Source of the DNA: an uncultured bacterium
Lineage (GTDB): Bacteria > Abyssobacteria > SURF-5
Direction of reading: 5' to 3'
DNA: 26,346 nucleotides
Assembly (NCBI GenBank): GCA_964607485.1
Contig: CAZSKP010000054.1
Location: forward strand, 1-26,346
Shown here: in pieces, positions 1,519 to 25,535 of the stretch
Layout of the letters: each line of letters opens with the position of its first letter
How positions within the stretch are numbered: position 1 is the first letter of the stretch
Made by a program: the position numbers and the translations under genes
The notes under the pieces: model-generated
What the model saw: the letters and a program-made list of their open reading frames with translations, nothing else
What the model was told of the DNA's origin: nothing
Database searches by the model: none

Positions 1519-1535
1519 AGCAAGAACTGTACCAA
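1519..1535 (-). promoter_or_regulatory. Sigma54 -24/-12 promoter for pilin 2
   Basis: Minus strand reads TTGGTACAGTTCTTGCT (GG-N10-GC) in the 75-bp gap upstream of pilin 2. Confidence 0.8.
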
Positions 1536-7057: not shown

Positions 7058-7062
7058 TCCAT

Positions 7063-7572: not shown

Positions 7573-7617
7573 TGTAACGCCCGATCGTTTTGCGCTCTGT
7601 TTCCTGGCCTTTTTCCT

Positions 7618-8655: not shown

Positions 8656-8683
8656 GTTCTCGGACTGTTCCTTTCTCAGCTCA

Positions 8684-9919
8684 TCAGGGATTAATCAGGG
8701 TCGAAAGCTTGAATATCGGCATGAACAGGGCCAGCACCATTCCGCCCACCACGACGCCGAGGAACAGTATCAGCAACGGCTCAATGAGCGAGGTCAGGCT
8801 GGCGATGGTCGCCTCCACCTGTTGGTCATAGAACTCGGCTATCTTTGAAAGCAACTCGTCGAGCGAGCCGGTTTTCTCGCCCACGTCGATCATCCGGGTG
8901 ACCATCAACGGAAACACGCCGCTCCGGGCCAGAGGCTCGGCGATCGTCGCGCCCGCCTTGATGCTCGACTGCGAATTCTTCACGGAGCGGGAGAGGACCT
9001 CGTTACCGATCGTCCGCTCGACTATCTCCAGCGCCGCGAGCACGGGCACGCCGCTTCGGGTAAGCGTGGACAGGGTGCGCGCAAACCGCGATACCGCCAC
9101 CTTCCTGAACAGCGCGCCGAACACCGGCAGCCTTAGCTTTAAGGTGTCGAACTGCATTCTGCCCGCGGCGGTGGAAACATAGTACCGCAGGGCAATACCG
9201 ATTGCAATGGCGATGCCGACTACAATCAGAATGTAGCTGCGCAGGACGTTGCTCACTTTGATGAGCATGAGTGTGGGCACGGGCAGAGTTCCCCCTAAGC
9301 TGCTGAATATGTCCTGAAACTTCGGCACGATAAACACGAGCAGGCCCGTCGCTATGACCACGACTATGACAAACGCCACGACCGGATATGTCATCGCGGA
9401 ACGGATCTCTCGCTTCAGCTTCTCGGTGGCCTCGAGGTACTCGGCAAGCTGCACGAGAATCCCGTCCAGATTGCCGCTGGCCTCACCCGCGCGGACCATG
9501 CTGGTATAGAGTTCCGGGAAGACCTTCGGGTGCTTCCTGAGCGCATCCGAGAACGTCAACCCGGCTTCGATGTCCTGCCCTACCTGTGTGAGCACGCGTT
9601 TGAAGTTCACCGATTCGGTCTGCTCTATCATGATGTCAATTCCCTGAAGGAGCGGCAGGCCGGAGTTGACCATGGTTGCGAGCGAGCGGGTGAACAACAG
9701 CATTTCTTCCGCTTTTACCTTCTTCCCCTTCATGGTGCCCGTGATGACGTCCTTGCGCGAGCCGGCCGCGGCTCCGCCGGAACGGCCGTCGGCCACGGAC
9801 GTGGGCACGAGCCCCTTGCTCCTCAATTTCTGGAGCAACTCCTGCTTATTATCGGCCTCCATCATGCCGGAGAGGCTGTTGCCCGATTTGTCGCGGGCCG
9901 TGTACTGAAACGTCGCCAT
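8684..9919 (-). CDS. pilC: Type IV pilus platform protein PilC (GspF family)
   Basis: FTRSLATMVNSGLPL, RAGEASGNLD, SAMTYP, GEKTGSLD and LIEPLLI motifs; 411 aa with TM segments. Confidence 0.95.
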   Translation of the reverse strand: MATFQYTARDKSGNSLSGMMEADNKQELLQKLRSKGLVPTSVADGRSGGAAAGSRKDVITGTMKGKKVKAEEMLLFTRSLATMVNSGLPLLQGIDIMIEQTESVNFKRVLTQVGQDIEAGLTFSDALRKHPKVFPELYTSMVRAGEASGNLDGILVQLAEYLEATEKLKREIRSAMTYPVVAFVIVVVIATGLLVFIVPKFQDIFSSLGGTLPVPTLMLIKVSNVLRSYILIVVGIAIAIGIALRYYVSTAAGRMQFDTLKLRLPVFGALFRKVAVSRFARTLSTLTRSGVPVLAALEIVERTIGNEVLSRSVKNSQSSIKAGATIAEPLARSGVFPLMVTRMIDVGEKTGSLDELLSKIAEFYDQQVEATIASLTSLIEPLLILFLGVVVGGMVLALFMPIFKLSTLINP

Positions 9920-9961
9920 TGATGATCCCTCCCGTCTGGATTGAAGAACGTCTCGTTCAGT

Positions 9962-11347
9962 TTAGTTTTCCTTGCCCTTCATGTTGTACTTCTCCAGCTT
10001 GTATCTAAGCGACCTCGGTGAGAGCTGAAGCAGCCGGGCCGCCTTCGTCTGCGAGTTGGACGTCCGCTTCATGGCCTGTTTAATCAGCGAACGCTCAAAG
10101 GCCTCTACGCGACTGTTCAAGTGTATTCCCTCCGAGGGGAATTCAGCCGCGTAAGGCTCCTCCACCGCCGAATCGCACAGCTTCCTCGGCAGGTCATGGG
10201 GCTCTATCGCGCCGCCGTTGCACAATGCGGCCGCCCTCTCGATCACGTTTTCGAGTTCCCTCACGTTGCCCGGCCAGCGGTACTGTTCGAGTATCTTCTC
10301 GGTCTCGGGCGAGATGGAGATCTTTCTGCCGGCGCGCACGCAGAATTCCTGGAGGAAATGCCTGGCCAGCAACAGAATATCCTCGCGCCTCTCCCGCAGC
10401 GAGGGCACGTACAGCGGAATGACATTGAGACGATAGTAGAAATCCTCCCTAAACTTCCCCTCAGAGACCACCTTTTCGAGGTCCTTGTTCGTCGCGGATA
10501 TGAGCCGAACGTCCACGGAAAAATCCGAGGCGCTGCCGACGGGACGTATCTTCATCTCGTCGAGAACCCTCAGAAGCTTCACCTGCAGGGCCATGCTTGT
10601 CTCGCCTATTTCGTCCAGGAACAGGCTGCCGCCGCTGGCCACCTTAAACAGTCCGTCTTTGTGAGAAATGGCGCCGGTGAACGCGCCCTTGACATGGCCG
10701 AACAGCTCGCTCTCGAGCAGATTCTCCGGAATTCCGCCGCAGTTTATCGCCACAAACGGCTTGTCGCTCCGAGCGCTGCAGTTATGTATCGCCTTGGCGA
10801 CGAGTTCCTTTCCCGTTCCGCTTTCGCCCCGTATCAGCACGGTGCTGGACAGGCAGGCCACCTTGTGTATCAGATCCTTCATGTCGTTCATGGGGGTGCT
10901 GTTTCCCACCAGGTCATCCAACCTGCCGATTTTCTTCAGTTCCGAGCGGAGCACTTTGTTTTCGGCGCGAAGCTTCCTGCTCTCGAGCGCCTTCTCGACA
11001 ATCAGCTTGAGCTCATCGTTCTTGAACGGCTTAATCAGGTAGTCGTACGCCCCCAGCTTCATGGCCTCGACGGCGGAGTCGACGGAACTGTGAGCCGTTA
11101 TGACGATGGAGGGAATGAACCCGTCGGAATGTTGAGCCTGTTTGAGAATCTTGATGCCGCCATGCCTGTCCTCGTTCAGCCAGAGGTCGGTAATCAGAAG
11201 GTCCCACAGTTCCTCTCTCAGCTTCTTTGAGGCCTCCTCGTAGGACTCGACTCCCTGCGCCTCGTACCCCTGCTTTTCGAGCATTATGGCCAGCAACTCC
11301 CGCATGCTCGGTTCGTCTTCGACTATCAGAATTCGATATCTTTCCAT
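9962..11347 (-). CDS. pilR: Sigma54-dependent response regulator PilR (REC-AAA+-Fis HTH)
   Basis: REC (IVEDE, ITD, KPF), GESGTGKE, ESELFGHVKGAFTGA, FLDEIG, WPGNVREL and an HTH. Adjacent to the PilS-like kinase. Confidence 0.85.
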   Translation of the reverse strand: MERYRILIVEDEPSMRELLAIMLEKQGYEAQGVESYEEASKKLREELWDLLITDLWLNEDRHGGIKILKQAQHSDGFIPSIVITAHSSVDSAVEAMKLGAYDYLIKPFKNDELKLIVEKALESRKLRAENKVLRSELKKIGRLDDLVGNSTPMNDMKDLIHKVACLSSTVLIRGESGTGKELVAKAIHNCSARSDKPFVAINCGGIPENLLESELFGHVKGAFTGAISHKDGLFKVASGGSLFLDEIGETSMALQVKLLRVLDEMKIRPVGSASDFSVDVRLISATNKDLEKVVSEGKFREDFYYRLNVIPLYVPSLRERREDILLLARHFLQEFCVRAGRKISISPETEKILEQYRWPGNVRELENVIERAAALCNGGAIEPHDLPRKLCDSAVEEPYAAEFPSEGIHLNSRVEAFERSLIKQAMKRTSNSQTKAARLLQLSPRSLRYKLEKYNMKGKEN

Positions 11348-11357
11348 TTTTCTTCCT

Positions 11358-12986
11358 TCAATCTTGTCTGGGCAGCACGACTGTTACCGTGGTCCCCTTC
11401 CCCCTGGCGCTCTCCACATCGATCGAGCCTCCATGCGAGGCAACTATCCTGTGGGCGATCGCCATGCCTAGGCCGACTCCTCTCGGCTTCGTCGTGTAAA
11501 AAGGGTCAAAGATTCTTTCCACCTCCTCAGGAGCCAGCCCACAGCCGTCATCTTCCACAAAAACGCTGGCATAGCCCGGCGGGCTATCATCCGCTCCCGC
11601 ACGGACCCGCAGCGTACCCCCCGCGGGCATCGCCTCTATGCCGTTCTGAACGATGTTCAACAGAGCTTCCCTTATCTGGCTGCAGTCGCCCGTCACGCAT
11701 CCGAGGCCATCCGGATACTGCCTGAGAATGGAAATGTCTCCATTGCAGAAGCACCGCTCTGCCAGTTGCACGACCTCGTCCAGAATCCGGCGCATGTCGC
11801 ATTGTTCTCTTGCGCGAGGGCCTGTGCCGACAAACTCGAGAAAGTCAGTAACTATCCTGTTCAGTTGGTCGCACTCCCTCGTCGCTATCTTGATCAACTG
11901 CCCGTTTGTCCCGTCGAGGAGCAGGTTTTCGGCAAGCTCCTGAACGGCTCCCCTGATTGAGGCCACGGGGTTTCTGATTTCATGCGCGAGGACGGCAGAC
12001 ATCTCGCCGACCGCGGCCAGCCTGTCGGACCTCCTCAGCCTTTCCTCCATCCGCTTGAGTTCGGTAAGGTCTATGAAACTCGCGACCGCGCCCATGAGCT
12101 TCTTGGCGCCGTTTCGTATGGGCGACACGGTTATTCCGACGGGAATCGATTCACCGTCACCCCGGCTCACGGCGACCTCTCGGCTCTGGTATTCTTTCTG
12201 TTCGGCTATCGACTCCTCCAGCGGGTTGGGTTGGCCGTCAGCCACGGGGAACACGCACGAAACGTGTTTGCCGGCGGCCTCCGACCACGGGCGCCGAAGC
12301 AGGTTCGAGCCCGCCGGATTCAGAAACGTGACGATGCAGTCGCGGTTCACGCTCATGAATCCGCTCGAGAAGCTGTTCAGAATGTTCTGCTGGAACGATT
12401 CAAGCAGTCCGACCTGGCGAGACAGACAGCCGGCCAGGAACGCCGTCAGGTAAAAGGCAAAGACCTTCATCCCGGTGTAGGCCCACATGTCGCCCGAGAC
12501 CATCGGAGGCTCGCTCCACCTGAAGGCGGACTCGGGGACGACATAGCCGCTTTGCTCCAGAAGCATGATGAGCAGAAAGAGCGCCGAACACATCGTGGCG
12601 ACAAGAACGCTCCAATTGAACGAAAGCAGGATGGCGGCCGACAATATTGCGGCGATATACAGGAAGGCGAAAACGCTTTTGCCGCCGCCCGTCACGACGA
12701 CAATGGCGCTTATCAGGATGAGGTCGGCGCACAGCAGGAGAAAGGAGAAGCGAATCGACGGATTGTAGCCGGCCGCCAGAATGACCATAACGATCAACGA
12801 CTCGATCAGCGCGATGACGAAGATCGCGAAAAGGTAGTACGTATACTGGTCGGACTCCGTCCCGCTCCTGATGTGCAGCGCCAAGCACAGAAGGGCGACG
12901 ATCGACACGATCATTGCACGAGCCAGCGCAAACCGTTTCAGGATCAGCTTGCCCTGCTCCACATCGGTCTTGAAAGGATCGATCAT
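11358..12986 (-). CDS. pilS: Membrane sensor histidine kinase PilS
   Basis: About six N-terminal TM helices, PAS, AHEIRNP H-box, N-box, DDGCG and FDPFYTTK/GVGLG. Located in the pil locus. Confidence 0.85.
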   Translation of the reverse strand: MIDPFKTDVEQGKLILKRFALARAMIVSIVALLCLALHIRSGTESDQYTYYLFAIFVIALIESLIVMVILAAGYNPSIRFSFLLLCADLILISAIVVVTGGGKSVFAFLYIAAILSAAILLSFNWSVLVATMCSALFLLIMLLEQSGYVVPESAFRWSEPPMVSGDMWAYTGMKVFAFYLTAFLAGCLSRQVGLLESFQQNILNSFSSGFMSVNRDCIVTFLNPAGSNLLRRPWSEAAGKHVSCVFPVADGQPNPLEESIAEQKEYQSREVAVSRGDGESIPVGITVSPIRNGAKKLMGAVASFIDLTELKRMEERLRRSDRLAAVGEMSAVLAHEIRNPVASIRGAVQELAENLLLDGTNGQLIKIATRECDQLNRIVTDFLEFVGTGPRAREQCDMRRILDEVVQLAERCFCNGDISILRQYPDGLGCVTGDCSQIREALLNIVQNGIEAMPAGGTLRVRAGADDSPPGYASVFVEDDGCGLAPEEVERIFDPFYTTKPRGVGLGMAIAHRIVASHGGSIDVESARGKGTTVTVVLPRQD

Positions 12987-13002
12987 CTTGTTGACCTGTC
13001 TC

Positions 13003-14067
13003 TCAGAATCCCTTTCCCATGAGCCTCAGAAGATCTTCCTGATTCATGCTGCTCTCCAGGGCCTGCTCGTAAGAGATTTGACCGTTCTTGTACAGCTTGT
13101 GAAGGCTCTGGTTCATCGTCTGCATGCCGAGCGCTCCGCCCGTGCTTATGGCGGAATATATCTGATGCAGCTTGTCCTCACGCACAAGACTTCTTATGGC
13201 AGGGGTCGCCACCATGATCTCCAGCGAGAGCACCCTCCCGTTCATGTCCTTTCGTGGAAGCAGCTTCTGAACGATCACGCCCTCCAGCACGAAGGAGAGC
13301 TGCGTGCGCACCTGCAGCTGCTGATGCGGAGGGAAGACGTCGACCATTCGGTTGATGGACTGAGTGGCGTCATTGGAGTGGAGTGTGGCGAAGACGAGGT
13401 GCCCCGTCTCGGCGACGGTCAGCGCCGCCTCTATTGTCTCGAGGTCGCGCATCTCTCCGATCATTATCACATCGGGGTCCTGCCTGAGAATATGCTTCAG
13501 GGCCGCCCCAAACGAGTGAGTGTCGGCGTACACCTCGCGCTGGTTGATGATGCTCAGCTTGTGCGCGTGCAAATATTCAATCGGGTCCTCGATCGTCACC
13601 ACATGGCAGCGCCTTTCGAGGTTGATCTTGTTGATAAGCGCGGCGAGCGTCGTGCTCTTGCCGCTGCCCGTGGGCCCGCATACGAGAATCAACCCCTGCT
13701 GTCTCTCGGCCATTTCGCGGACGCACTTGGGCAGTCCCAGATCTTCAAAGCCCGGCACCTCGTAAGGGATAGTACGTATCGCGGCACTCACCGAACCGCG
13801 GTCAACGAAGAGGTTCACGCGAAACCGGCTCAGCCCCTTTATCCCAAACGACATGTCGAGTTCCTTTTCTTTCTCGAATTCCTTTATCTGATGCTCGGTC
13901 AGGATGCTGTATGCAAGGCTTTTCGTCGCATCCGGAGTGAGGGGATCGGCATCCATCGGATACAGCTCTCCGTCGATTCGAAGCTGTGGTGGAAGGCCCA
14001 CGACGAGGTGAAGGTCGGAGGCGTTGTTTTCGATTATCTGCTGACACAATTCTTCAAGCTGCATCAT
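13003..14067 (-). CDS. pilT: Retraction ATPase PilT
   Basis: ASDLHL, GPTGSGKST, TIEDPIEY, LRQDPDVIMIGEMRD, AETGHLVFATLH, AIRSLVRE (AIRNLIRE-like) and GMQT. Confidence 0.95.
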   Translation of the reverse strand: MMQLEELCQQIIENNASDLHLVVGLPPQLRIDGELYPMDADPLTPDATKSLAYSILTEHQIKEFEKEKELDMSFGIKGLSRFRVNLFVDRGSVSAAIRTIPYEVPGFEDLGLPKCVREMAERQQGLILVCGPTGSGKSTTLAALINKINLERRCHVVTIEDPIEYLHAHKLSIINQREVYADTHSFGAALKHILRQDPDVIMIGEMRDLETIEAALTVAETGHLVFATLHSNDATQSINRMVDVFPPHQQLQVRTQLSFVLEGVIVQKLLPRKDMNGRVLSLEIMVATPAIRSLVREDKLHQIYSAISTGGALGMQTMNQSLHKLYKNGQISYEQALESSMNQEDLLRLMGKGF

Positions 14068-14085
14068 AGGATTTCTCCGTTCGTT

Positions 14086-14099
14086 TCGACAATTGTCGA
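14086..14099. promoter_or_regulatory. Perfect 14-bp palindrome in the pilT leader, candidate operator
   Basis: TCGACAATTGTCGA lies immediately upstream of the pilT SD (GGAG, 14075-14078). Confidence 0.4.
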
Positions 14100-14202
14100 G
14101 AGGTGACCGTGAACATTAGTGGCGACCTGTGGCAATTTTTGTACTCGCCAAATTTCAAAAATGTGGCCTATTATGGATATTTTTTCCGGAAATCCGTAGT
14201 GG

Positions 14203-14219
14203 AGCAATTCCTGTGCCAA
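14203..14219 (-). promoter_or_regulatory. Sigma54 -24/-12 promoter upstream of pilT
   Basis: Minus strand reads TTGGCACAGGAATTGCT, essentially consensus, in the 247-bp pilB-pilT gap. Confidence 0.88.
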
Positions 14220-14314
14220 ATTTTGTAACTCCCGCCATAACCGGCCCTGTGGGGCGGATGTCGGCGCTGCGAAACGTTGCAAATGAGGACGAAATGAGGG
14301 AAATCGGCCCGGGT

Positions 14315-16030
14315 CTAATCCGGGGCGGTGACACGGAGGGTTTCCTCCAGGGTGGTGAGTCCGCCTTTCACCTTCGTAAGCCCGACCTGCCGAAGAGTGA
14401 GCATACCGTTTTCGATCGCCGTGCGCTTTATCTCTCCGGAGGGAGCGGAGGCCATTATGAGGTCCTGGATATTTTCCCTCACGCGCAGGACCTCCAACAG
14501 CGCGACCCTGCCGCGATAGCCCGTCTCACCGCAACGCGGGCATCCCTGACCTTTTGAGAGGACGATCTTCTCGCCCGACTCCGAGTGGAATTGCGCCCTT
14601 CTGAGCACCTGTTCGGGCACCCGGTACGATTGCCGGCAATCGGGACAGATTTTTCGGACGAGGCGCTGCGCCGCGGCCATGAGCATCGAGGAAGCGATGA
14701 GGAACGGCTCCATCCCCATGTCGATAAGCCTCGTGATCGCACCGGGAGCGTCGTTGGTGTGGAGTGTGCTCAGCACGAGGTGGCCGGTGAGAGCCGCTTT
14801 GATGGCTATGTCGGCCGTCTCTTCGTCACGAATTTCTCCGACCATGACGATGTCGGGGTCCTGACGCAATATCGACCTGAGACCGGAGGCGAAGGTGAGC
14901 CCCACTTCAGGCTTGGCCTGCACCTGGTTGATGCCGTGGAGATTGTACTCCACCGGGTCTTCGACGGTTACTATGTTGACGTCCAGCTTGTTCAGCATGT
15001 GGAGCGCAGAGTACAGGGTTGTCGTCTTACCGCTGCCGGTCGGGCCGGTGACGAGGATGATTCCATTCGGGCTGCCAAGGCTATCGCGAAAATCGTTGAG
15101 CGGTTGTTCCTCGAAGCCGAGCTTGTCCAGGTCGAGCTGGAGGGCGCCCTTGTCGAGGATTCGAATAACGACCTTTTCGCCGAAGCAGGTGGGAAGCGTC
15201 GATACACGGAAGTCTATCTCCCGGCCTTCGAACTTTATCCGAAAGCGGCCGTCCTGCGGAACCCGCCGCTCGGCGATGTCCATCTCGCACAAAACCTTCG
15301 TGCGTGAAACGACCGCCGCCTGGAGCCCTTTGGGCGGCGACTGGACTTCTCTGAGAACGCCGTCCACGCGGTATCGCACACGAACCTGTTTTTCAAACGG
15401 CTCGATATGGATGTCGCTCGCTCCCTCCTTTATAGCGTTGACGAGAATGAGGTTAACAAGCCGGATGACGGGCGCCTGCTCGACCTCTTTCTTCAGATGA
15501 CTTATGTCAATTTCTCCCTTATCCTCCAACAAGGTGACGACGTCCGCCTGGGCGTCTCGGAGGATATCCTCGTAGTCGTCGGTCTCCGAATCGCCGCCGC
15601 CGTAGTAGCGGTCGATCGCCTTCTTCACCTCGGAATCCAGACACACGACGGTCTCGATCTCGTGTCCGGTAAGCATTCGGACATCGTCGACGGCGACGAT
15701 ATTCAACGGGTCGGACATCGCGATCGTCAGCGAGTTGCCCGTCCGTGCGACCGGTATCAGGTGGTATCGCTTCGCGATGCCGTCGGGCACCTCGGCGAGC
15801 ACCTCGGCCGGAATCTCGTAGCTTTCAACCCGAAGATGGGGGATGCCCAACTGCTCGCTCAGGGTAATGACAATGTCCTCCTCACTGACGAGGCCGGAAT
15901 TGATCAGAATCGCAACGAGCGGTTGGCCGGTTCGTCTCTGCTCATACAACGCCTGAGAGAGCTGCTCGGACGTCAGCAATCGTTCTTCGAGCAGGATGTC
16001 GCCCAAACGCTTCTTGAGAGTTTCAACCAT
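14315..16030 (-). CDS. pilB: Assembly ATPase PilB with N-terminal MshEN-like domain
   Basis: KRLGDILL...QL...L..Q, ASDIHIEP, GPTGSGKTTT, LRQDPD, LTGHLVLSTLHTND, a tetracysteine motif (CPDC...CPRC) and GYRGR. Confidence 0.95.
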   Translation of the reverse strand: MVETLKKRLGDILLEERLLTSEQLSQALYEQRRTGQPLVAILINSGLVSEEDIVITLSEQLGIPHLRVESYEIPAEVLAEVPDGIAKRYHLIPVARTGNSLTIAMSDPLNIVAVDDVRMLTGHEIETVVCLDSEVKKAIDRYYGGGDSETDDYEDILRDAQADVVTLLEDKGEIDISHLKKEVEQAPVIRLVNLILVNAIKEGASDIHIEPFEKQVRVRYRVDGVLREVQSPPKGLQAAVVSRTKVLCEMDIAERRVPQDGRFRIKFEGREIDFRVSTLPTCFGEKVVIRILDKGALQLDLDKLGFEEQPLNDFRDSLGSPNGIILVTGPTGSGKTTTLYSALHMLNKLDVNIVTVEDPVEYNLHGINQVQAKPEVGLTFASGLRSILRQDPDIVMVGEIRDEETADIAIKAALTGHLVLSTLHTNDAPGAITRLIDMGMEPFLIASSMLMAAAQRLVRKICPDCRQSYRVPEQVLRRAQFHSESGEKIVLSKGQGCPRCGETGYRGRVALLEVLRVRENIQDLIMASAPSGEIKRTAIENGMLTLRQVGLTKVKGGLTTLEETLRVTAPD

Positions 16031-16052
16031 GAGATGGTCCCTATCGGTTTGC

Positions 16053-17441
16053 CTAGGCCTCGGTCGTCTTGAACAGGTGTTTCAGTATCTCCTGCGCCAG
16101 CTCCAGCGTTATTTCGTGACCCACCAGCGACGAATAAGCCAGCAGCTTCTTGAGCGCGCCTTCCAGTTCCCGAATGTTCGACGGAATCGACTTGGCCAGC
16201 AGCTCCAGCACATCGTCGGTCACGCTCGCCCCGGCGGCCTCGGTCCTCTGCCGGAGGATGGTGAGACGCGTCTGAAAATCCGGCTCCTCCAGACATGCCA
16301 CGACGCCGCCCTCGAACCGGGAGATGAGCCGCTGTTCGAGCCCTTCCAGTTTTTTCGGAGGAACGTCGCTGACAAGTATTATCTGTTTTTTCCTGTTATA
16401 AATGGCATTGAAAATATTGAAGAATTCCTCCTGGGCACGCGTCCTGCCCGAGAGGAACTGAATGTCATCGACTATCAACAGGTCCACGCCGTTGTAGCGT
16501 TCTCGAAACTCCTTCATTCGGTCGTGCTCGACTGCGTCGAGCATCTCGTCGATAAACCGGCTGGCGGGAGCGTAGACCGCTCCCATCTCGCCCTCACGGC
16601 GCACAACTTCGTTGCCAATTGCGTTGGAGAGATGGGTCTTGCCCAGGCCCGTATTGCCGTATATGAAGAAGGGGTTGTATTCGGACCCCGGAGATTCGGC
16701 GATCGACCTTGCAAGCGCATAGGTGAACGAGTTGGCTTCGGCCACTACAAAGTTGTCAAACCCAAACCGTTCTATGAGGCCGTCCTCGGGTGGCGTCTTC
16801 TGTTTTTCGGGCGGCGCCTTCTTCCGAGGTTTCTCGGGTTTCTCCTGCTTCTCCTGTTTCTTCGAGGGCGGCCCACCGGCCGGTTTCTCCTGCTCTGCAG
16901 CGGGCTCCTCGAGCTCCTCGGAGATTTCCAAGTGTGCCTGTGTGACTTTCCTTTCTTTTGAACCGTATATCTTTGCGTAGAGGTCCTTGAAGTCGGCCCA
17001 TGAACAGAGGATCGGCTTTATCCGAAGCTTCACCGTCTGCTTGACCTTCTCCAGAGCCTCGACATCGAGCGGGTTGACCATGGCGACGGTAAGAAGTGTC
17101 CCCAGCTTGTCAATCGGAAGGAGCTTGTACTCGTAACAGACCTCGGCCGGGATCAATTCCGCGACCTCGGAGCTTACCTGCAGATTGGACAGTTTCAGAT
17201 GAGGAATGCGGCACTGCCGAACGAGGAAGCCAATGAGTTCGTCCTCGGTGACGTATTTCAAGCGTACCAGGACTTCGCCCAGAAACAGACCGCTTGACTG
17301 CTTCTCCCGAAGCGCCTCCTCGAGTTGCGGGCGGGTAATGACATCTTCACGAATCAGCAGTTCGCCGAGCTTCTTGTTTGCTCCCTTCATGTCTCTTGCA
17401 CATCTTTCTGGAGAGGATTGGTTTACAGATATCCCATCCAT
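16053..17441 (-). CDS. Fusion of a PilB/GspE-type N-terminal (MshEN-like + N1) domain with a DnaA domain III AAA+ module; no DnaA domain I or IV
   Basis: aa ~23-160 resemble the PilB N-terminus (KLGELLI..., LTVAMVNPLD). aa 161-220 form an E/K/P linker. aa 221-462 contain FDNFVV, YNPFFIYGNTGLGKTHL, LLIVDDIQFL, QEEFFNIFN, RLISRF and NIRELEGAL, and the protein stops just after the AAA+ lid. An alternative start at 17390 is possible. Confidence 0.88.
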   Translation of the reverse strand: MDGISVNQSSPERCARDMKGANKKLGELLIREDVITRPQLEEALREKQSSGLFLGEVLVRLKYVTEDELIGFLVRQCRIPHLKLSNLQVSSEVAELIPAEVCYEYKLLPIDKLGTLLTVAMVNPLDVEALEKVKQTVKLRIKPILCSWADFKDLYAKIYGSKERKVTQAHLEISEELEEPAAEQEKPAGGPPSKKQEKQEKPEKPRKKAPPEKQKTPPEDGLIERFGFDNFVVAEANSFTYALARSIAESPGSEYNPFFIYGNTGLGKTHLSNAIGNEVVRREGEMGAVYAPASRFIDEMLDAVEHDRMKEFRERYNGVDLLIVDDIQFLSGRTRAQEEFFNIFNAIYNRKKQIILVSDVPPKKLEGLEQRLISRFEGGVVACLEEPDFQTRLTILRQRTEAAGASVTDDVLELLAKSIPSNIRELEGALKKLLAYSSLVGHEITLELAQEILKHLFKTTEA

Positions 17442-17492
17442 CCTCTCCCTTCATCGTCGAATGGGATTCGCTTTCACCCAGTCCGTCCCCGT

Positions 17493-17521
17493 TTGACTTA
17501 AGTTAGTGATTCCGATATAAT
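17493..17521 (+). promoter_or_regulatory. Sigma70-type promoter for the hybrid kinase
   Basis: TTGACT (17493-17498), a 17-bp spacer and TATAAT (17516-17521), 60 nt upstream of ATG 17582. Confidence 0.85.
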
Positions 17522-17581
17522 TACATCAGATGTTCGATTAGATCGAATACAGCGCTCCGGCTTCGGAGCCGGTGCTCAAAA

Positions 17582-19579
17582 ATGAAGCATTCTTTCGTCA
17601 AAATTGTCCCGTCACGCCTGATGGTCGTCGGGCTCGGCACGACGTTGTTCGTGCTGTGTATCACGGCCATCACAATGCTTTTCCCCGGCCTGATAGGCCG
17701 AGAGAGACTCGCCGACAGGCTTGTAAGCGGCCTGCAGTCGGTGGCTCCCCTCGAATCGGGCGATATCACAGAGCAAAACCTCGACCACACACTGTTTGCC
17801 ATATTTCAATCCAATAAAGCGAGCAGAAACATCTCGTACCTGCGCTTCGTAGACCTCAACGACGGCACGATCTTCACTTTCGACGAAAAAGGAACTCGCA
17901 AACCCTTCGGCCGGGCAGAACCGGACATATGGGCAGACCTCATGAACAACCAGAGGGCCATCAACATCGATAGCGGCAAATTCGAGATCTTTCGTGTCGT
18001 CTCTCCTAAACTGCCCATTGCGATAAATCTCGGCATAGAGCCCGAGGTTGCCTATGAGATTGAATCACAGCGACGTCTTTCCGCCATTGTGGGAAGCATA
18101 ATCCTTGCCACTGGGATAGGAATCCTGATAATGATATGGCAGACGCGACAGATAGAAGAGGCAAAAGGCGAGTTGGAGCTTGTTTTAGCGAACACCGCGG
18201 AACCCATCCTCATGGTTGACAATTATTGTCGTTTGGTGTTCGCAAACGGACCGGCCCGTGCGCTTTTAGGACAGCCGAAGGCGAAGACTTTCAAGAATCG
18301 TCCTCTGCTCCCCCTCATCAAGAATTCGGACAATCGCGAATTCTTCGCAAAAATGCTTGGCGACGAGCAATCCGACCTCAACGAACTCGAGACGACGTTC
18401 CCCGGCTACTCCGACAAGGTGACATTCCGGGCGGGTGTGCTGGATGTGAAGACCGAGGTCGGGCGACCTTTGGGCAAGCTGCTTGTGCTCAGGGACATGA
18501 CTCTGGAAAAGAGACTGGAAGACAAAAAAGTTTCACAGACCATACACGAACTGAAAGGGATGCTGGGCGAGGTGAAAGGATTCATCCGCCAGGTGCTCGA
18601 GAGCATAGACGGAGAATCGCAGCGAGAGCAGCGGGCGTTCCTGAACATATGCCTCGAAAAACTCGAACGATGCTACGACACGGTGGCCGCGATGGTCAGG
18701 TCGATCGTGAGCGCGTTCAAGCCCCAATCGTTCGAACTCAGGCTGCGCCACTCGGATTTGACCGAAATACTCAAATTCAACGTGGCCGACTTCGGCTCAT
18801 CGCTCGAAAAAGAGAAGGCCGAAGGGTGCAGGCTGGAACTGAGCCTGCCCGAAAAACTGCCCACCGTGTGCTGCGACCCGAACGCCATCTCGCGCGTCAT
18901 CGCAAACTTGCTCCTGAACGCCACGCAGCACTGTCCCCGAGGAACCATCGTGGTCGCGGCGAAGGAGAAGGACGAAATAGTGCAGGTCTCGGTGAGCGAC
19001 ACAGGGAGCGGAATACCGAGTGAGAACCTGGAAAATATCTTCGAACCCCACGTGAGCTACAGGAACGAAGGCTCCGGATTGGGCCTCTCGATATGTCGCG
19101 ACTTCATAAAGGCGCACGGTGGAGAAATGTGGGCGGAGTCCGGTGGCAAAGGAAAGGGCAGCGTCTTCCACTTCACGCTTCCCAAATCGAGACCCGTCAT
19201 CCTGTCTTCCGACCCGACGCTCACAAGCAGATTGGAGTCGGGATGCAAGAGCAACGGATATCACCCGGTCGTGTTGCGGGATTTCCTGGCGGCCACACGG
19301 AGGGTGGCCGAGATAAACCCGAACGCCATATTCCTCGACCTCGACATGCAGGATACCATTTCCGGAACATCGCTCGCATACCGTCTGAAGAAGACGGGCG
19401 ACACGGCGAAAATCCCGATAATAGCGTTCGCATCAAACGTATCGGACGCCCAATCCGAACTCAGCAGATACGAGGGAATCACACTGGAGACATGCCTGCA
19501 GAAGGAGTTCTCTGAAGAGGAGCTGTGGTCGGCCATGGGAACCGTCGAGGCTTACTGGTATCTGGCGCAAAGTGTCTGA
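17582..19579 (+). CDS. Hybrid sensor histidine kinase (TM-extracytoplasmic-TM-PAS-HisKA-HATPase-REC)
   Basis: Two TM segments and a PAS domain (FANGPA...RDMT). H-box IHELKGML, NLLLNA, DTGSG, GSGLGL and GSVFHFTLP, then a C-terminal receiver (IFLDLDM, IPIIAF). Confidence 0.9.
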   Translation: MKHSFVKIVPSRLMVVGLGTTLFVLCITAITMLFPGLIGRERLADRLVSGLQSVAPLESGDITEQNLDHTLFAIFQSNKASRNISYLRFVDLNDGTIFTFDEKGTRKPFGRAEPDIWADLMNNQRAINIDSGKFEIFRVVSPKLPIAINLGIEPEVAYEIESQRRLSAIVGSIILATGIGILIMIWQTRQIEEAKGELELVLANTAEPILMVDNYCRLVFANGPARALLGQPKAKTFKNRPLLPLIKNSDNREFFAKMLGDEQSDLNELETTFPGYSDKVTFRAGVLDVKTEVGRPLGKLLVLRDMTLEKRLEDKKVSQTIHELKGMLGEVKGFIRQVLESIDGESQREQRAFLNICLEKLERCYDTVAAMVRSIVSAFKPQSFELRLRHSDLTEILKFNVADFGSSLEKEKAEGCRLELSLPEKLPTVCCDPNAISRVIANLLLNATQHCPRGTIVVAAKEKDEIVQVSVSDTGSGIPSENLENIFEPHVSYRNEGSGLGLSICRDFIKAHGGEMWAESGGKGKGSVFHFTLPKSRPVILSSDPTLTSRLESGCKSNGYHPVVLRDFLAATRRVAEINPNAIFLDLDMQDTISGTSLAYRLKKTGDTAKIPIIAFASNVSDAQSELSRYEGITLETCLQKEFSEEELWSAMGTVEAYWYLAQSV

Positions 19580-19673
19580 GAGGCGAGGCAGCTTTCGAGG
19601 AACCCCCGGTCATATGTCCGAACACGGGCCACGTTTAGCGAACCGCCTCACCATCCGAGGAGGCAATTGAAAA

Positions 19674-21035
19674 TTGTCCGTCAAGGGAAGCAAGATACTC
19701 ATCATAGACGATGAATTGGATACGGTCCAAAGCATCGTGAGCTTTCTGAAAGAGGAGGGCTTCGAGGTCACGGTGGCATACGACCGCCTCGAGGCCACGC
19801 GCCTGCTGAAAAAGACGGATTACGACATCGTCTTCCTGGACTGGGTGCTGGAAAGAGAGATAGGACTCGAGGTGCTGAACGCGCTGCACAGGGAATTCCC
19901 CGCACTCGACATCGTCGTGCTGAGCGAGGGCGCTTCGCTCGAAATGGCGGTCCAGGCAATCAGCCATGGGGCGTACGACATAATAAAAAAAGCGCGCGAA
20001 GACGGAACCAACCGGTGGAAAGTCCCCCCGCGCCTGCCCATCGTTCTCCACAACCTGCTTGCTCGCAGGCAGGAGCGCGAACTCGTGACACAGCAGATGG
20101 ACGAGAAGTACTACATGATCGGCGAGAGCGAGGCCATGCAGAAGCTGAGGGAGGAGATAAGGCTCATCGGCCCGAGCGACTACACCGTGCTCATCTGCGG
20201 AGAGAGCGGCACCGGAAAGGAACTCGTCGCGCACAACATCCATCGCAACAGCCCCCGCCGCGATGCTCCGTTCGTTCCGGTCAACTGCAGCGCCCTTACG
20301 TCCACCCTGCTCGAATCGGAACTCTTCGGAATAGAGAAGCATGTGGCCACCCAGGTGGACCAGCGCAAGGGCAAATTCGAACTCGCCCACGACGGCACGC
20401 TCTTTCTGGACGAAATCGGCGACCTCAGCTACGAGGCGCAGGCGAAACTGCTGAGAGTGCTCGAGGACAAGACAATTACGCGCGTGGGCGGACAGAAGGA
20501 GATAAAGGTAGATGTGCGGGTGATCGCAGCCACAAACCGCGACATGGACGCCATGATAAGAAACGAGAGCTTCAGGGAAGACCTGAGGTATCGTCTCTCG
20601 TACAGAATAAACTGTCCTCCTCTGAGAGAACACAAGCAGGACGTCAAGCCGCTGGCGGAATATCTGCTCGGACAAGCGTGCCGAGAACTTCACAAAAAAC
20701 CCATCTCCATCGACGCCGAGGCGCTCGACCTGCTCACGTCGTACTCCTGGCCGGGCAACGTACGCCAGCTCAAGAATGTCCTCCAGTGGGCGGCCGTGAG
20801 AGTGGAGCGTGTCATCGGCGCCGACCTCCTCCGAACAAATGAGGACTTGCGCGCAGCGGCTGTGACGCCTGAGGACTATGCGCAGATGAGCTTCAAGGAT
20901 GCCCTGCGCTCTTTCGAGCGCGACTTGATATCGCGCACGCTGAGCGAAAGTTCCTCGCATCGCGAGGCGGCCCAGAAACTGGGAATGGACGAGGGCAATT
21001 TCTCAAAGAAGCTTAAGGAACTCCGCCTGCGATGA
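19674..21035 (+). CDS. NtrC-family REC-AAA+-HTH regulator with an atypical GAFTGA loop
   Basis: TTG start with GGAGG SD. IIDDE/FLD receiver, GESGTGKE, ESELFGIEKHVATQV, FLDEIGD, WPGNVRQL and a C-terminal HTH. Confidence 0.9.
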   Translation: MSVKGSKILIIDDELDTVQSIVSFLKEEGFEVTVAYDRLEATRLLKKTDYDIVFLDWVLEREIGLEVLNALHREFPALDIVVLSEGASLEMAVQAISHGAYDIIKKAREDGTNRWKVPPRLPIVLHNLLARRQERELVTQQMDEKYYMIGESEAMQKLREEIRLIGPSDYTVLICGESGTGKELVAHNIHRNSPRRDAPFVPVNCSALTSTLLESELFGIEKHVATQVDQRKGKFELAHDGTLFLDEIGDLSYEAQAKLLRVLEDKTITRVGGQKEIKVDVRVIAATNRDMDAMIRNESFREDLRYRLSYRINCPPLREHKQDVKPLAEYLLGQACRELHKKPISIDAEALDLLTSYSWPGNVRQLKNVLQWAAVRVERVIGADLLRTNEDLRAAAVTPEDYAQMSFKDALRSFERDLISRTLSESSSHREAAQKLGMDEGNFSKKLKELRLR

Positions 21036-21326
21036 GCACCGGACCCGCCGCATGAGACAAGGCTATCCCGCGTTGAATCGCGCCTAGTGTTAGGCCTTCC
21101 CGTTGACCTGAAGCGCCTGAACCGAGCTTGTAGTAAGCACAAATTGTTTTGTTGAGCCCACAAAGAAACCGGCCCGATTTCGTTGAACGGTCGTTAAGCA
21201 AACCGCCCATTCCTTCTCCGCGCCGCCCTACCGAGAGATAGCTAAGCTAATGATAAATCATATCTTATGAATTTTGCACATTTCTCGCCGGACGGATATC
21301 GCCCATGGCTCCCATTGTATCGATTT

Positions 21327-21343
21327 TTGGCACAACCCTTGCA
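21327..21343 (+). promoter_or_regulatory. Sigma54 -24/-12 promoter for the receiver/Ser-Thr kinase pair
   Basis: TTGGCACAACCCTTGCA, near consensus, 40 nt upstream of ATG 21383 and preceded by an AT-rich tract. Confidence 0.88.
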
Positions 21344-21382
21344 AAAAGGAGTGAACGGAGGGTACTACGTTTGGGAGGAGAA

Positions 21383-21784
21383 ATGGCACAGGCAGAACCG
21401 CTTCGAAACGGCATCAGCGAAAACAGCGTCCTGATTATCGATGATGAAATCGAATCGTTGAGGGGAATCGTCGACTTCTTCAAGAAGAGCAAATGGAGCG
21501 TCGCAACCGCGATTGACGAGAGAGAAGCGATTCTTGAGTTTGAGCGCGTGAATCCGTGCCTCGTGCTTCTCGACTTGGTGCTCGAGAGGGAGAGCGGCTT
21601 CGAAGTGCTCAGCCGAATTCGACAGCTCAATCCCGAGAGTAAAGTCATCATAATCAGCAAGTATTTTGACTACGAACTAATCAAGCAGGCGATGAAAGCC
21701 GGCGCCATAGGCTTTGTGCAAAAGTCCGAGACGGACGTGCTCCCGTCGGGCTTTACCAGCCTCTTGAGGGGCGCAATAGCCTGA
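21383..21784 (+). CDS. Single-domain response regulator (133 aa)
   Basis: VLIIDDE, VLLDLVL, IIIS and GFVQK. Start set at ATG 21383 (SD GGAGGAG at 21374-21380); the longer ORF-track start would run through the sigma54 promoter. Confidence 0.9.
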   Translation: MAQAEPLRNGISENSVLIIDDEIESLRGIVDFFKKSKWSVATAIDEREAILEFERVNPCLVLLDLVLERESGFEVLSRIRQLNPESKVIIISKYFDYELIKQAMKAGAIGFVQKSETDVLPSGFTSLLRGAIA

Positions 21785-21851
21785 CGGCGACGTGCGGTGA
21801 CGCAAGAATCCGGCTCTGTTTCGGCTCAGCGTCAGCTAGGCAAAGGAAGGC

Positions 21852-22853
21852 ATGCTAAGAAGCAAACACTCAGAAGCGTTCGGCGAAGACAGCTTCGAAG
21901 GGGTCTATCGCCGCATCCTCAGAAAGCACGGCTACCAATTTCTGCAGGTAATCGGAAAAGGCGGCATGTCTCGCGTTGACGAGGTGCGCCACCTTCTCAC
22001 GGGAAAACTGAGAGCGATAAAACATCTCGGCCCCAATCCTCCCGCAGAGAAAGCGGAGAGGTTCAAGAGGATACTCAGGCGCGAGACAGAATACTCTTTC
22101 AACCATCCCAACGTGATGAAGGGCGTGGATTATTTCGAAGACGGAGGCAACGTCTTCTACGTGATGCCCCGCATGCAGCACAACCTGGAGCACCTGTTGC
22201 TCGACGACAAGAAATACGACATCATGTTCCTGCTCGACATCGTCATCCAGGTCGTGGCGGGACTGAATTATCTCCACCAGAACCACATCATCCATCGCGA
22301 CCTCAAGCCGTCGAACATACTGTACAATCTCAACGGCAACGGCGCCGAAGTTGTGATATGCGACTTCGGCCTGAGTCAGGACAAGATTGCCAAGTTCAAG
22401 ACCGACATGTCCCGATTCCTGGGCGGCGGGCGTCGGGCGGGCACGATGAGTTACGCGGCTCCCGAGCAAATGCGCAAGGACGGCAGATACGACAAGAGGT
22501 GCGACATCTATTCGCTCGGGCGCGTAATCGACGAACTCGTGGGCAAGAAGGCGAAGTACAGGAAGGAATTCATAAACACGTTCCAGCAGGACCGGCTGAT
22601 CGATGGCCTGTCGAGAAAAATCTATCTTTACAAGAAAGACCGACCAGCCGTGCTCGAAGGCGAAAACCGCAAGCATCTCCCCTACTCTCTGACGAGCGTG
22701 GTGCTGAGATGCCTGCAAAAGCGTCCGGAAAAAAGACCGTCCGACATCGCTCAGATATTCTATGAACTGACGAAGATTCAGCAGGAATGCCGGATGGCCA
22801 ACGGGATGGACTCTCTCCAGAAGGAGGTGCTGACCTACCGCGCCCGGGAGTGA
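21852..22853 (+). CDS. Soluble Hanks-type Ser/Thr protein kinase
   Basis: [34 protein letters not shown] and DIYSLG. No TM segment or obvious sensor domain. Confidence 0.93.
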
Positions 22854-22875: not shown

Positions 22876-22909
22876 GAGCGGCCAGAGCGAGGGCCGCTCT
22901 TTTCATTTT
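22876..22909 (+). terminator. Intrinsic terminator after the kinase
   Basis: GAGCGGCC / GGCCGCTC 8-bp stem with an 8-nt loop, followed by TTTTCATTTT, between convergent genes. Confidence 0.75.
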
Positions 22910-22964
22910 GCGCTGTGCCGACGGGCTTCCACCTTCTCCCGGGACTGTTTCCCTTTCGGCCCGT

Positions 22965-24140
22965 TCAGCCGGAATCCAGCTCTCTCGCAAGAGCGGCCAG
23001 GTAGCGGACCGCGTCCGTGAGGTTCTGCGGGTCGATATTCTCGATGCGGTCGGTCGGCTGATGCCAGTAAGGAATCTCCTCGCTGCCTTCGGGAAAAGCC
23101 ATGAGCGTGATTCCTCTCAATCCTTTCCGCGCAACCACGGCGGTCTCCGTATAGCCCGTCTTCAGGGGCATCGCCAGAATCCCCTCATCGCCGACGGCTG
23201 TTGCCGTGTCCGCCGCCGCTCGTACCAAGCCCGCGTTGCTGTAATACTTTTTCAGCATGCCCTCGTATGTAATGTACCTGAGCTGCCCGACGCCCAGACA
23301 TTCGAGGTTGACGAAGTATGCGTCCTCCAGCTCATCGCCGTGCTTGTCCAGAAAAGCCCTCATCCCGGTGAGAGCCGCCTCCTCACAACCCGTGCACAAC
23401 GCCCAGAACTCCGTCTGCTCGAGCGGGTCCCGCACGAGAAGCTCCGCCAGACTCAACACGACCGCCGCCGCCGTGGCATTGTCGTTTGCGCCCTCCGTGA
23501 AAGGGGAAAACAGGTCGCCGTGCAGCATCGCCGCCAGCATCGCGACAATGGGAACATCGAGCGCCAACGATACGGCGAGCGCAGCCCCGTGGAATCCCGT
23601 GGCCGCGCCCGAGAAGAACGCCGCCGCCTTCAGGACGACGCAGGCGACCCCCAGCATGAGCAGCCGGGACAGATGCCCGACGAGGCGCGGGTGAAACAGT
23701 ATGGGGGTGCGGTTTGTGTCGAGATGGCCGATGGCCACGAGTTTCTTCCGCACTTCCTTCTTCGGCGGAACTCTGCCGTGCACGTTCTGAGAGACTCTCT
23801 TCGGCAGAAAGTTGCTCAGCGAAAGCTTCCAGAAACTCATCTCGGCGACCATTATGTACAGTGTGGCAAGGCACAGCAGGACTGCCCAGCCCCAGAGCTT
23901 CCCTCCGGTCCAGTAGTAGAGGCCCGTCGAGGCCAGCGCCAGGCCCAGCGCGATCTCGAGCGCCCACCACAGCGAAGGCACGCTCCGAAACGTTTCGACC
24001 GAAACCTGCCGCGCGCCCATTTCTTCAAGCTTTGTGGCCGCATAGGCCGCCGCGCGCGCTTCGGCCTCTGTCGTTGGCCCGCGCGGGCCTATCTCGGCAC
24101 AGAACACCTTTACATGTTCGATCGGCTCTACTGATAACAC
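22965..24140 (-). CDS. M28-family zinc peptidase with inserted TM hairpins
   Basis: GHLDT, GANDNATA, GCEE, VNLECLG and YWHQPTD metal-ligand motifs; two hydrophobic hairpins interrupt the domain; GTG start. Confidence 0.85.
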   Translation of the reverse strand: MLSVEPIEHVKVFCAEIGPRGPTTEAEARAAAYAATKLEEMGARQVSVETFRSVPSLWWALEIALGLALASTGLYYWTGGKLWGWAVLLCLATLYIMVAEMSFWKLSLSNFLPKRVSQNVHGRVPPKKEVRKKLVAIGHLDTNRTPILFHPRLVGHLSRLLMLGVACVVLKAAAFFSGAATGFHGAALAVSLALDVPIVAMLAAMLHGDLFSPFTEGANDNATAAAVVLSLAELLVRDPLEQTEFWALCTGCEEAALTGMRAFLDKHGDELEDAYFVNLECLGVGQLRYITYEGMLKKYYSNAGLVRAAADTATAVGDEGILAMPLKTGYTETAVVARKGLRGITLMAFPEGSEEIPYWHQPTDRIENIDPQNLTDAVRYLAALARELDSG

Positions 24141-24163
24141 GCGCCTGCGCCCTCCATGGTCGC

Positions 24164-24559
24164 TCAGTCGTGCTCGCAGATCTCAAGGAGCACGCCCATG
24201 GTGCTTTTCGGATGGAAAAAAGCGATCCTCGCGCCGCCCGCTCCCGGCCTCGGCTTCTCGTCAATCACTCGAAGCCCTTTGGCTTTCAATTCTTCAAGGG
24301 ACTTCTCCACGTCGTTGACGCGAAGGGCGATGTGTTGAACCCCGACTCCCCGCTTCTCGATAAACTTGGCGAGCGCGCCCTCTGGGTCGGTTGGCTGCAA
24401 GAGCTCGAACTCGGTATCGCCGATGGGAACGAACGCGATCTTCATGCCTTCGAACTCCTCGACGTGTTCCACCTTCAGGCCGAGGGTATCGCGATAAAGC
24501 TTGAGCGCCTCTTCGAGGTCGGAAACCGCAATCCCGATGTGGTCGATCTTCTCTATCAT
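24164..24559 (-). CDS. mce: Methylmalonyl-CoA epimerase (VOC fold)
   Basis: IDHIGIAV, FELLQP, GVQHIALRV and AFFHPKSTMGVLLEICE. Confidence 0.9.
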   Translation of the reverse strand: MIEKIDHIGIAVSDLEEALKLYRDTLGLKVEHVEEFEGMKIAFVPIGDTEFELLQPTDPEGALAKFIEKRGVGVQHIALRVNDVEKSLEELKAKGLRVIDEKPRPGAGGARIAFFHPKSTMGVLLEICEHD

Positions 24560-24577
24560 TCTCGACTTCTCTCCTTC

Positions 24578-25435: not shown

Positions 25436-25535
25436 CGCATTTTCTCCCTTATCGTCTTGGTGGACCCTTGCAACAATTCGAGATGAACATGAAAAGATCG
25501 CCGGAACAACGCGACGACAGCCCCGGCTGCTGCAT

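Follow-up and report, generated by a model that had tools for sequence, protein, structure and literature searches.

We analysed a stretch of 26,346 nucleotides from an uncultured bacterium of the Abyssobacteria (contig CAZSKP010000054.1, positions 1 to 26,346; hereafter the window), in which a gene on the minus strand (16053..17441) encodes a protein of 462 amino acids, designated X, that joins a cyclic di-GMP (c-di-GMP) sensor domain of the MshEN type through a linker to a DnaA domain III. X belongs to a conserved family across several phyla, in which MshEN and the DnaA ATPase core are united and tied to the pilus extension motor, and it adds an output to those described for MshEN and a family to the described DnaA paralogs. 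To our knowledge, no role has been described for the DnaA ATPase core beyond DnaA itself and Hda-type inactivators, and we know of very few types of MshEN output. Given its conserved position just upstream of pilB, X most probably regulates the pilus and does not serve in replication, and we tentatively propose, with slightly less than even confidence, that it acts as a c-di-GMP-responsive, ATP-dependent oligomerising accessory regulator of PilB.

Full-text literature searches returned no paper on the combination of MshEN and DnaA, in line with an earlier note on this DNA, made from the sequence alone, whose author knew of no characterised protein with this architecture; a prior listing in supplementary Table 4 of PMC5013675 is possible. 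The MshEN partners named in the main text of PMC5013675 are ATPase, glycosyltransferase, REC, HD-GYP, CheA, CheX, cyclase and Ser/Thr kinase, and not DnaA, and a review of PilB cofactors contained 0 occurrences of DnaA.

Domain architecture of X

X denotes the protein of the open reading frame (ORF) at 16053-17441 on the minus strand, the strand to which all coordinates in this section refer, and its residues are numbered from the ATG at 17441 unless stated otherwise. A Pfam scan placed an MshEN domain (PF05157) at residues 78-163 (E-value 3e-17, 62.8 bits against a cutoff of 23.1) and a Bac_DnaA domain (PF00308) at residues 224-381 (E-value 2.6e-56, 190.7 bits), and found neither Bac_DnaA_C (PF08299) nor DnaA_N (PF11638) in X; MshEN stands where domain I of DnaA would be. 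The NCBIfam model of the MshE-type c-di-GMP motif (NF053729, 53 residues) matched residues 24-76 at 58.1 bits (cutoff 38). X is thus composed of an MshEN_N subdomain (residues 24-76; 17214..17372), in which motif comparison revealed two 24-residue c-di-GMP motifs with a 5-residue spacer, a C-subdomain of the PilB N1D/GSPII type (residues 78-163; 16953..17210), assigned from Pfam, PDB sequence matches and fold matches, a disordered linker of about 55 amino acids rich in Lys, Glu and Pro (residues 165-217; 16791..16949), recognised by its composition and low model confidence, and a DnaA-type AAA+ module comprising IIIa and IIIb (residues 218-462; 16056..16790), supported by Pfam, PDB sequence and fold matches and by alignment to E. 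coli DnaA. Translation confirmed the positions of the domain III motifs that the earlier note had described as intact, namely Walker A (GNTGLGKT, residues 262-269; 16635..16658), Walker B (IVDDIQ, residues 323-328; 16458..16475), box VII with R371 (E. coli R281 by alignment) and the arginine finger R375 (E. coli R285; 16317..16331), and sensor II R424 (E. coli R334; 16170..16172), and likewise placed sensor I Asp359 at 16365..16367. Alignment coverage by homologues begins at about residues 17-19 of X, and its true start is therefore likely to be Met18 (ATG at 17390), giving 445 amino acids; a GGGAGAGG stretch lies immediately upstream of the ATG at 17441, with very short spacing. The choice of start codon leaves the architecture unaltered.

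Profile comparisons set X apart from several named families. The DnaA equivalog TIGR00362 scored 329.1 bits, below its cutoff of 343.9, and covered only model positions 74-342 of 437, and the Hda model TIGR03420 reached 91.5 bits against a cutoff of 194.8. The T2SSE ATPase domain (PF00437), which the adjoining pilB product carries at an E-value of 3.3e-144, was not found in the Pfam scan of X. Assignment of X as a helper ATPase of the IstB/DnaC type was rejected, as NF038214 gave 64.4 bits (cutoff 200), DnaC 25 (cutoff 357) and Pfam IstB 37.3 bits, far under the 190.7 bits of Bac_DnaA across the same residues. No match in X was found to four generic clamp-binding patterns, which agrees with the earlier remark that no clamp motif is evident.

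Aligned with E. coli K-12 DnaA, X showed 38% identity (103/274) over the whole BLASTP alignment, and its residues 228-461 lay without a gap on E. coli DnaA 138-371 at a constant offset of 90. Because this gapless match ends at about residue 371-372 of E. coli DnaA, X stops at the domain III/IV junction; together with the missing PF08299 match, this bears out the claim that the DnaA-box-binding domain IV is absent. A PDB sequence search likewise aligned X 200-459 with B. subtilis DnaA 89-348 without a gap and X 22-160 with the N-domains of PilF, PilB and MshE. The module is 38-45% identical to true DnaA domain III with no insertions or deletions, and 25% identical to E. coli Hda in a gapped alignment, while the N-domain is 29% identical to the adjoining PilB across 143 residues, again without a gap.

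Structural modelling gave the same picture. The AlphaFold2 model of X, built from a family alignment of 68 sequences and numbered from Met18, had a mean predicted local distance difference test score (pLDDT) of 84.8, with two confident domains and a linker of pLDDT below 50 at residues 147-201, consistent with the flexible linker proposed earlier. In Foldseek searches the C-terminal half matched DnaA domain III closely (8bv3, template modelling (TM) score 0.93, 1.8 Å; 2z4r, TM 0.94, 1.3 Å) and Hda clearly worse (TM 0.70-0.78, root-mean-square deviation 3.4-5.7 Å), and the N-terminal half matched the GSPII-A domain of PilF (9g1w, TM 0.82) and c-di-GMP-bound MshE (5htl, TM 0.74). The Pfam, NCBIfam and fold matches together establish that a PilB/MshE-type N-domain replaces domain I, as the earlier note had read from the sequence.

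X therefore combines features of three known groups. Like DnaA (domain III; 8bv3, 8btg, 2z4r, 1l8q and 3r8f), it has a complete AAA+ domain III, including the initiator-type helical insert, with Walker A, Walker B, sensor I, box VII, arginine finger and sensor II intact; unlike DnaA, it lacks domains I and IV, falls below the TIGR00362 cutoff and is encoded in a pilus operon. With Hda and HdaA it shares a DnaA-related AAA+ module without domain IV and a retained arginine finger, but it differs from them in its low identity and worse fold match, in showing none of the clamp patterns searched for and in carrying instead an MshEN domain of 150 amino acids. It resembles the MshEN receptors for c-di-GMP (V. 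cholerae MshE, T. thermophilus PilF, M. xanthus PilB and E. coli NfrB) in the scaffold of tandem 24-residue motifs and C-subdomain, but its output is a DnaA-type AAA+ module rather than a T2SSE ATPase or a glycosyltransferase.

A conserved family linked to pilB

Homologues were analysed as two sets, the 120 best near-length matches and 112 matches of 810-2310 amino acids. MshEN and Bac_DnaA occurred together in 118 of the near-length matches, the two exceptions being one truncated entry and one true DnaA, and in 41 of the longer ones. MshEN was N-terminal to the ATPase in all 166 members bearing both domains, with a linker of 26-738 amino acids (median 195) and a median of only 5 amino acids after the last ATPase module, and PF08299 was listed for no MshEN-bearing match of either set. 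Among the names of the sources are Abyssubacteria, Poribacteria, Nitrospiraceae and Hydrogenedentes/Hydrogenedentota. In the ESM Atlas, two clusters without names (72 and 56 members) contained both domains in 100% of their members, and the commonest phylum of the clusters combining MshEN and Bac_DnaA was Hydrogenedentota. The database labels are 'ATP-binding protein', 'DnaA/Hda family protein', 'hypothetical protein' or, wrongly, 'chromosomal replication initiator protein DnaA'; this last mis-annotation is widespread, and it can misdirect the calling of origins and of dnaA in metagenome-assembled genomes. No triple fusion of X with a PilB ATPase was present among the 112 longer matches, which is weak evidence of absence.

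Comparison of the window with four related loci (L001-L004) gave proportions of nonsynonymous differences (pN) of 0.148-0.156 in MshEN and 0.105-0.133 in the ATPase domain, and of 0.45-0.55 in the linker, in keeping with its flexibility, while synonymous differences (pS) were saturated at 0.69-0.79. These values point to strong purifying selection on both domains of X. The earlier note had named a misassembly at the junction and a singleton fusion under relaxed selection as possible objections. The same domain order in 166/166 members from many independent assemblies rejects the former two, and the low pN of both domains against saturated pS rejects the third, so that misassembly, a singleton and relaxed selection are excluded.

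Gene X is separated from pilB by a spacer of exactly 22 nucleotides (16031..16052, minus strand), as first noted from the sequence, and pilB itself (14315..16030, minus strand) encodes a type IVa pilus extension ATPase of 571 amino acids that matched TIGR02538 with 710.6 bits, above cutoff. Within 12900-17700 the minus strand showed no terminator-like site, and X and pilB are probably co-transcribed. Among 80 fetched loci, the fusion was present only in L001-L005 and L010, the others containing ordinary dnaA matched via domain III; with the window this gave seven loci, and the contig of L010 ends inside pilB. The architecture search and synteny comparison proposed earlier thus yielded a conserved family with pilB directly downstream of X in 7/7 loci from three lineages, whose X relatives are 45-73% identical to X. 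pilT followed in 6/6 loci reaching that far (the window and L001-L005), and pilS-pilR-pilC came next in five (the window, L001, L003, L004 and L005). Upstream of X, the genes are mutL and miaA in L005 (49% identity) and different again in L010 (45%, Hydrogenedentes). As the upstream genes vary in these two loci, the conserved link is that to pilB.

Trees of the ATPase modules, thinned to below 70% identity, were calculated with FastTree and IQ-TREE, the very long row P0226 being left out of both IQ-TREE runs. In the FastTree analysis all true DnaAs formed one group (local support 98) with no MshEN or tetratricopeptide repeat (TPR) forms within it. In IQ-TREE, 35 of the 39 MshEN-linked modules, X included, fell into one group with a Shimodaira-Hasegawa-like approximate likelihood ratio (SH-aLRT) support of 98. 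The remaining four are the paired modules of giant forms, and a single clade of all 39 was not rejected (p-AU of the approximately unbiased test 0.755), its likelihood being above that of the quick free search. The trees therefore place the MshEN-linked modules outside the true-DnaA clade. The giant forms are eight proteins (P0121-P0128) of about 1,870-2,000 amino acids, in which MshEN is combined with two DnaA-III modules that belong to different parts of the tree and are separated by about 1,200 residues without a Pfam match.

Other architectures share the module. TPR arrays were joined to a DnaA III lacking domain IV in 42 of the 112 long matches, from Sumerlaeota, Hydrogenedentota and Poribacteria (proteins P0171-P0224), and these formed one clade (support 99); zinc ribbons were joined to DnaA III in 5/112. 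In the one context examined, L020, the gene of the TPR form (5955-8732, plus strand) has rhamnosidase, PhzF-like, oxidoreductase, STAS and HEAT neighbours and no pilus or replication genes. Such forms would be expected if X were a generic signalling AAA+ switch with an output unrelated to pili, its adjacency to pilB being a lineage-specific accident. We consider this improbable, given that pilB adjoins X in three lineages of 45-73% identity to X with different upstream genes, and that the N-domain matches the PilB type in particular. As a separate observation, the five zinc-ribbon proteins (P0162, P0165-P0167 and P0169), in which the ribbons are C-terminal, have long N-terminal regions without a Pfam match.

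Sensor, ATPase module and possible partners

According to our proposal, c-di-GMP would bind the MshEN domain of X, which would dock on PilB or on the site used by PilB's own N1D, and the ATP-bound AAA+ modules would assemble head-to-tail and disassemble after hydrolysis. The result would be a multivalent scaffold or switch, timed by nucleotide, through which the c-di-GMP level gates the assembly or activity of PilB, with X supplying c-di-GMP sensing in trans to a motor whose own site is lost. Such a model, if true, would explain the c-di-GMP response of a PilB with a degenerate site, and an oligomeric regulator timed by ATP would join the known PilB cofactors.

The two motifs of X fit the published relaxed 24-residue pattern in their 5-residue spacing, both glycines and all hydrophobic positions. 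Across 159 family N-domains, motif-1 position 6 was Leu in all, the two motif glycines were kept in 140 and 151, respectively, and the closing Gln of motif 2 in 136, and a Phe at motif-2 position 1 (in place of Arg, Lys or Pro), also present in X, was found in 140 and constitutes a family signature. In PMC5013675, a change of any one conserved hydrophobic residue of MshEN lowers the affinity more than 10-fold, the G11L and G40I variants bind c-di-GMP poorly, if at all, and charged motif positions alter the affinity less than 5-fold. Binding of c-di-GMP by X therefore appears plausible, because the critical hydrophobic residues and glycines are conserved, although X departs from the pattern at three non-hydrophobic positions.

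PilB itself has a degenerate site. In motif 2 of its own MshEN (15851..15922, minus strand), the equivalent of MshE G40 is Val (residue 39; 15914-15916), and motif alignment revealed that this glycine is absent in 7/7 X-linked PilBs, being replaced by V in the window, V/A/V/V in L001-L004, P in L005 and P in L010; in the PilB of L010 the motif-1 glycine is replaced by Pro as well. By comparison, the motif-2 glycine is present in 57 of 84 background representatives of unrelated PilBs. As c-di-GMP binding requires a glycine that the X-linked PilBs do not have, X may sense c-di-GMP in trans. A comparable arrangement might be that of Xanthomonas PilZ-FimX (7lkm/7lko), an accessory regulator docking on the N-terminal domain of PilB, which would bring c-di-GMP information to a PilB with a non-sensing N-domain, much as proposed for X; its folds and domain logic are unrelated to those of X, and binding between X and PilB is weakly supported in silico.

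The latter was assessed by complex prediction with the N-domain of X (residues 1-152 from Met18, family alignment) and full-length PilB (90-row alignment). Three runs scored 0.57, 0.60 and 0.56 (median 0.57), the best of three controls scoring 0.00, with a contact agreement of at least 93% and a partner pLDDT of at least 79. Of 157 solved complexes, 116 attained the score mark, as did 2 of 215 mismatched pairs; at scores of 0.60 or below it was attained by only 18 of the 157 and by both of the passing mismatches. Because the alignments for the X-PilB run were our own, these counts apply only approximately. The prediction gives weak support to docking of the N-domain of X on PilB.

The same observations bear on the possibility that X is a competitive decoy, in which its N1D-like domain would occupy the PilB N1D site on PilM or PilC and inhibit extension, the AAA+ module controlling only the availability of X; this differs from the accessory-regulator proposal in sign only. 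The synteny with pilB would be the same, the N-domain of X is a full PilB-type N1D resembling that of its own PilB (29% identity), and N1D-type domains dock partners in solved structures, such as the PilB(N)-PilZ complex (7lkm/7lko), which was also among the Foldseek fold matches of the X model. However, no pilM lies within the window, it was PilB itself that gave the weak complex signal, and the strongly conserved full ATPase machinery argues for more than passive titration, and we regard a decoy as unlikely.

The AAA+ module was examined by counting residues in 125 family modules and in 47 true DnaAs from the fetched loci, a DnaA set biased to candidate-phyla-radiation bacteria. The ATP site is essentially invariant in the family: Walker A K268 and T269, Walker B D325, sensor I Asp359 and box VII R371 were found in 125/125 modules, and Walker B D326, the arginine finger R375 and sensor II R424 in 124/125. 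A basic residue equivalent to Lys243 is also conserved. Other positions depart from DnaA. The residue after sensor I is Arg in 44/47 true DnaAs, and in the family Val (60), Lys (55) or Arg (5). At AID-1 (E. coli R227) Arg is present in 28/47 DnaAs and is not among the five commonest family residues (C/A/S/G/N). The H motif position (E. coli V211) is Ile or Val in 47/47 DnaAs, and Leu (55), Ala (19) or Ile, Met and Ser (8 each) in the family. The B motif position (E. coli R245) is Glu (54), Arg (50), Gln (11) or Lys (7) in the family, and the residue that follows this motif is Ser or Thr in 44/47 DnaAs and Ala in 119/125 family modules. X itself has L301 (H motif), R335 (B motif) and N317 (AID-1). 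In PMC5742627, motifs H and B are described as binding single-stranded DNA (ssDNA) and AID-1 R227 as a conserved residue of the interface between domains III, these residues being given roles in the binding of ssDNA and in DnaA-DnaA contacts that are competent for unwinding, while the arginine finger, the box VII Arg and Lys243 are described as making domain III-domain III contacts in DnaA. The conserved ATP-site and finger residues, together with the altered AID-1, H and B positions, suggest that ATP binding, hydrolysis and head-to-tail contact are preserved and that the specialisation for origin opening is not.

These residues also speak to a role at the origin. X could be a c-di-GMP-gated antagonist or modulator of DnaA with an Hda-like action outside the Hda family, engaging ATP-DnaA head-to-tail by finger insertion or filament capping and so coupling the c-di-GMP or pilus state to initiation. 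The gapless alignments to E. coli and B. subtilis DnaA, the TM scores of 0.93-0.94 at 1.3-1.8 Å and the conserved arginine finger, box VII Arg and Lys243-equivalent basic residue would all suit this role. Nevertheless, it is rather unlikely: the AID-1 Arg is not among the five commonest family residues, no clamp motif was found with the generic patterns and X matches Hda poorly, pilB and not dnaA or dnaN is the conserved neighbour, the two DnaA modules of each giant chain suggest self-pairing, and the true-DnaA clade does not include the MshEN-linked modules. A variant, which we rate as quite unlikely, is that X is a c-di-GMP-gated mimic of the DnaA ATPase domain placed at the pilus motor, which caps or destabilises ATP-DnaA oligomers or stimulates their hydrolysis. 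If so, it would form a direct molecular link from the surface or pilus state to the decision to start replication, and along with this equally doubtful mimicry the MshEN-, TPR- and zinc-ribbon-linked DnaA-III proteins would constitute an unrecognised family of initiator-derived regulators.

Handling by X of ssDNA taken up through the pilus in natural transformation, via the DnaA-type ssDNA surface, was also considered. DnaA domain III binds ssDNA via the H and B motifs, according to PMC5742627, and X has Leu and Arg there; however, the H and B positions are unconserved in the family, the neighbouring Ser/Thr is Ala in nearly all of its modules and no competence genes were seen in the window, so that such a function is very improbable. 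Of the functional options in the earlier note, that of a repurposed pilus regulator is accordingly favoured, by the presence of pilB in 7/7 loci, the degenerate PilB site and the weak complex support, and those of co-polymerisation with or inhibition of DnaA and of ssDNA handling are weakened by the AID-1, B and H positions.

Several points weigh against X as a c-di-GMP-responsive regulator of PilB. X departs from the relaxed pattern at position 10 in each motif and also at the first position of motif 2, and because of these three mismatches binding of c-di-GMP is not assured. The window PilB still passes NF053729 (58.8 bits), and the correlation between the lost PilB glycine and the presence of X, drawn from about three independent lineages, is suggestive at best. 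The synteny likewise amounts to seven loci in about three independent lineages, five of the loci holding relatives of 71-73% identity. The complex score lies in a weak band and may partly mirror solved PilF, which has several MshEN-type domains and an ATPase in one chain. Identity to DnaA domain III of 38-45% makes an X-DnaA contact possible, and the TPR and zinc-ribbon sisters, with L020 lacking pilus genes, imply that the output of the module may be generic and not specific to PilB.

Neighbouring genes

On the minus strand, X is followed in order by pilB, pilT, pilS, pilR, pilC, an epimerase, a family-2 glycosyltransferase, two TMEM260-like/TPR proteins and two pilins. The retraction ATPase gene pilT (13003..14067), identified by Pfam and NCBIfam, is followed by the remainder of the conserved operon (8684..12986), consisting of pilS (11358-12986), pilR (9962-11347) and pilC (8684-9919), all on the minus strand. 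Between pilC and the pilins (1545-8655, minus strand) lie the genes of the NAD-dependent epimerase, the family-2 glycosyltransferase and two TMEM260-like O-mannosyltransferase/TPR proteins of about 795 amino acids, which look like a pilin glycosylation module.

A pattern scan found no sigma-54 promoter upstream of X, and Rfam gave 0 matches at gathering score in the entire window. Exact matches to the sigma-54 core (TGGCAC-N5-TTGC) were located at 14204-14218 (minus strand) in the pilB-pilT spacer and at 21328-21342 (plus strand) at the start of a small receiver-domain ORF, and a match with one mismatch at 1520-1534 (minus strand) lies about 50 nucleotides upstream of the first pilin gene; in number, sigma-54 pattern matches across the window do not exceed chance (27 against a mean of 22.85).

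Divergent from X, the region 17582-22853 (plus strand) encodes a hybrid histidine kinase/receiver, a sigma-54 activator, a single receiver and a Ser/Thr kinase, of which the kinase and activator pair upstream of X is kept in L001, L002 and L004. A sigma-70-like promoter agreeing in 11/12 positions (17493-17521, plus strand) faces the kinase gene. Further along the plus strand (22908-25486) are two large overlapping ORFs of 408 and 590 amino acids without a Pfam match, to which an ORF of 589 amino acids in L002 (10408-12177), also without a Pfam match, may be related.

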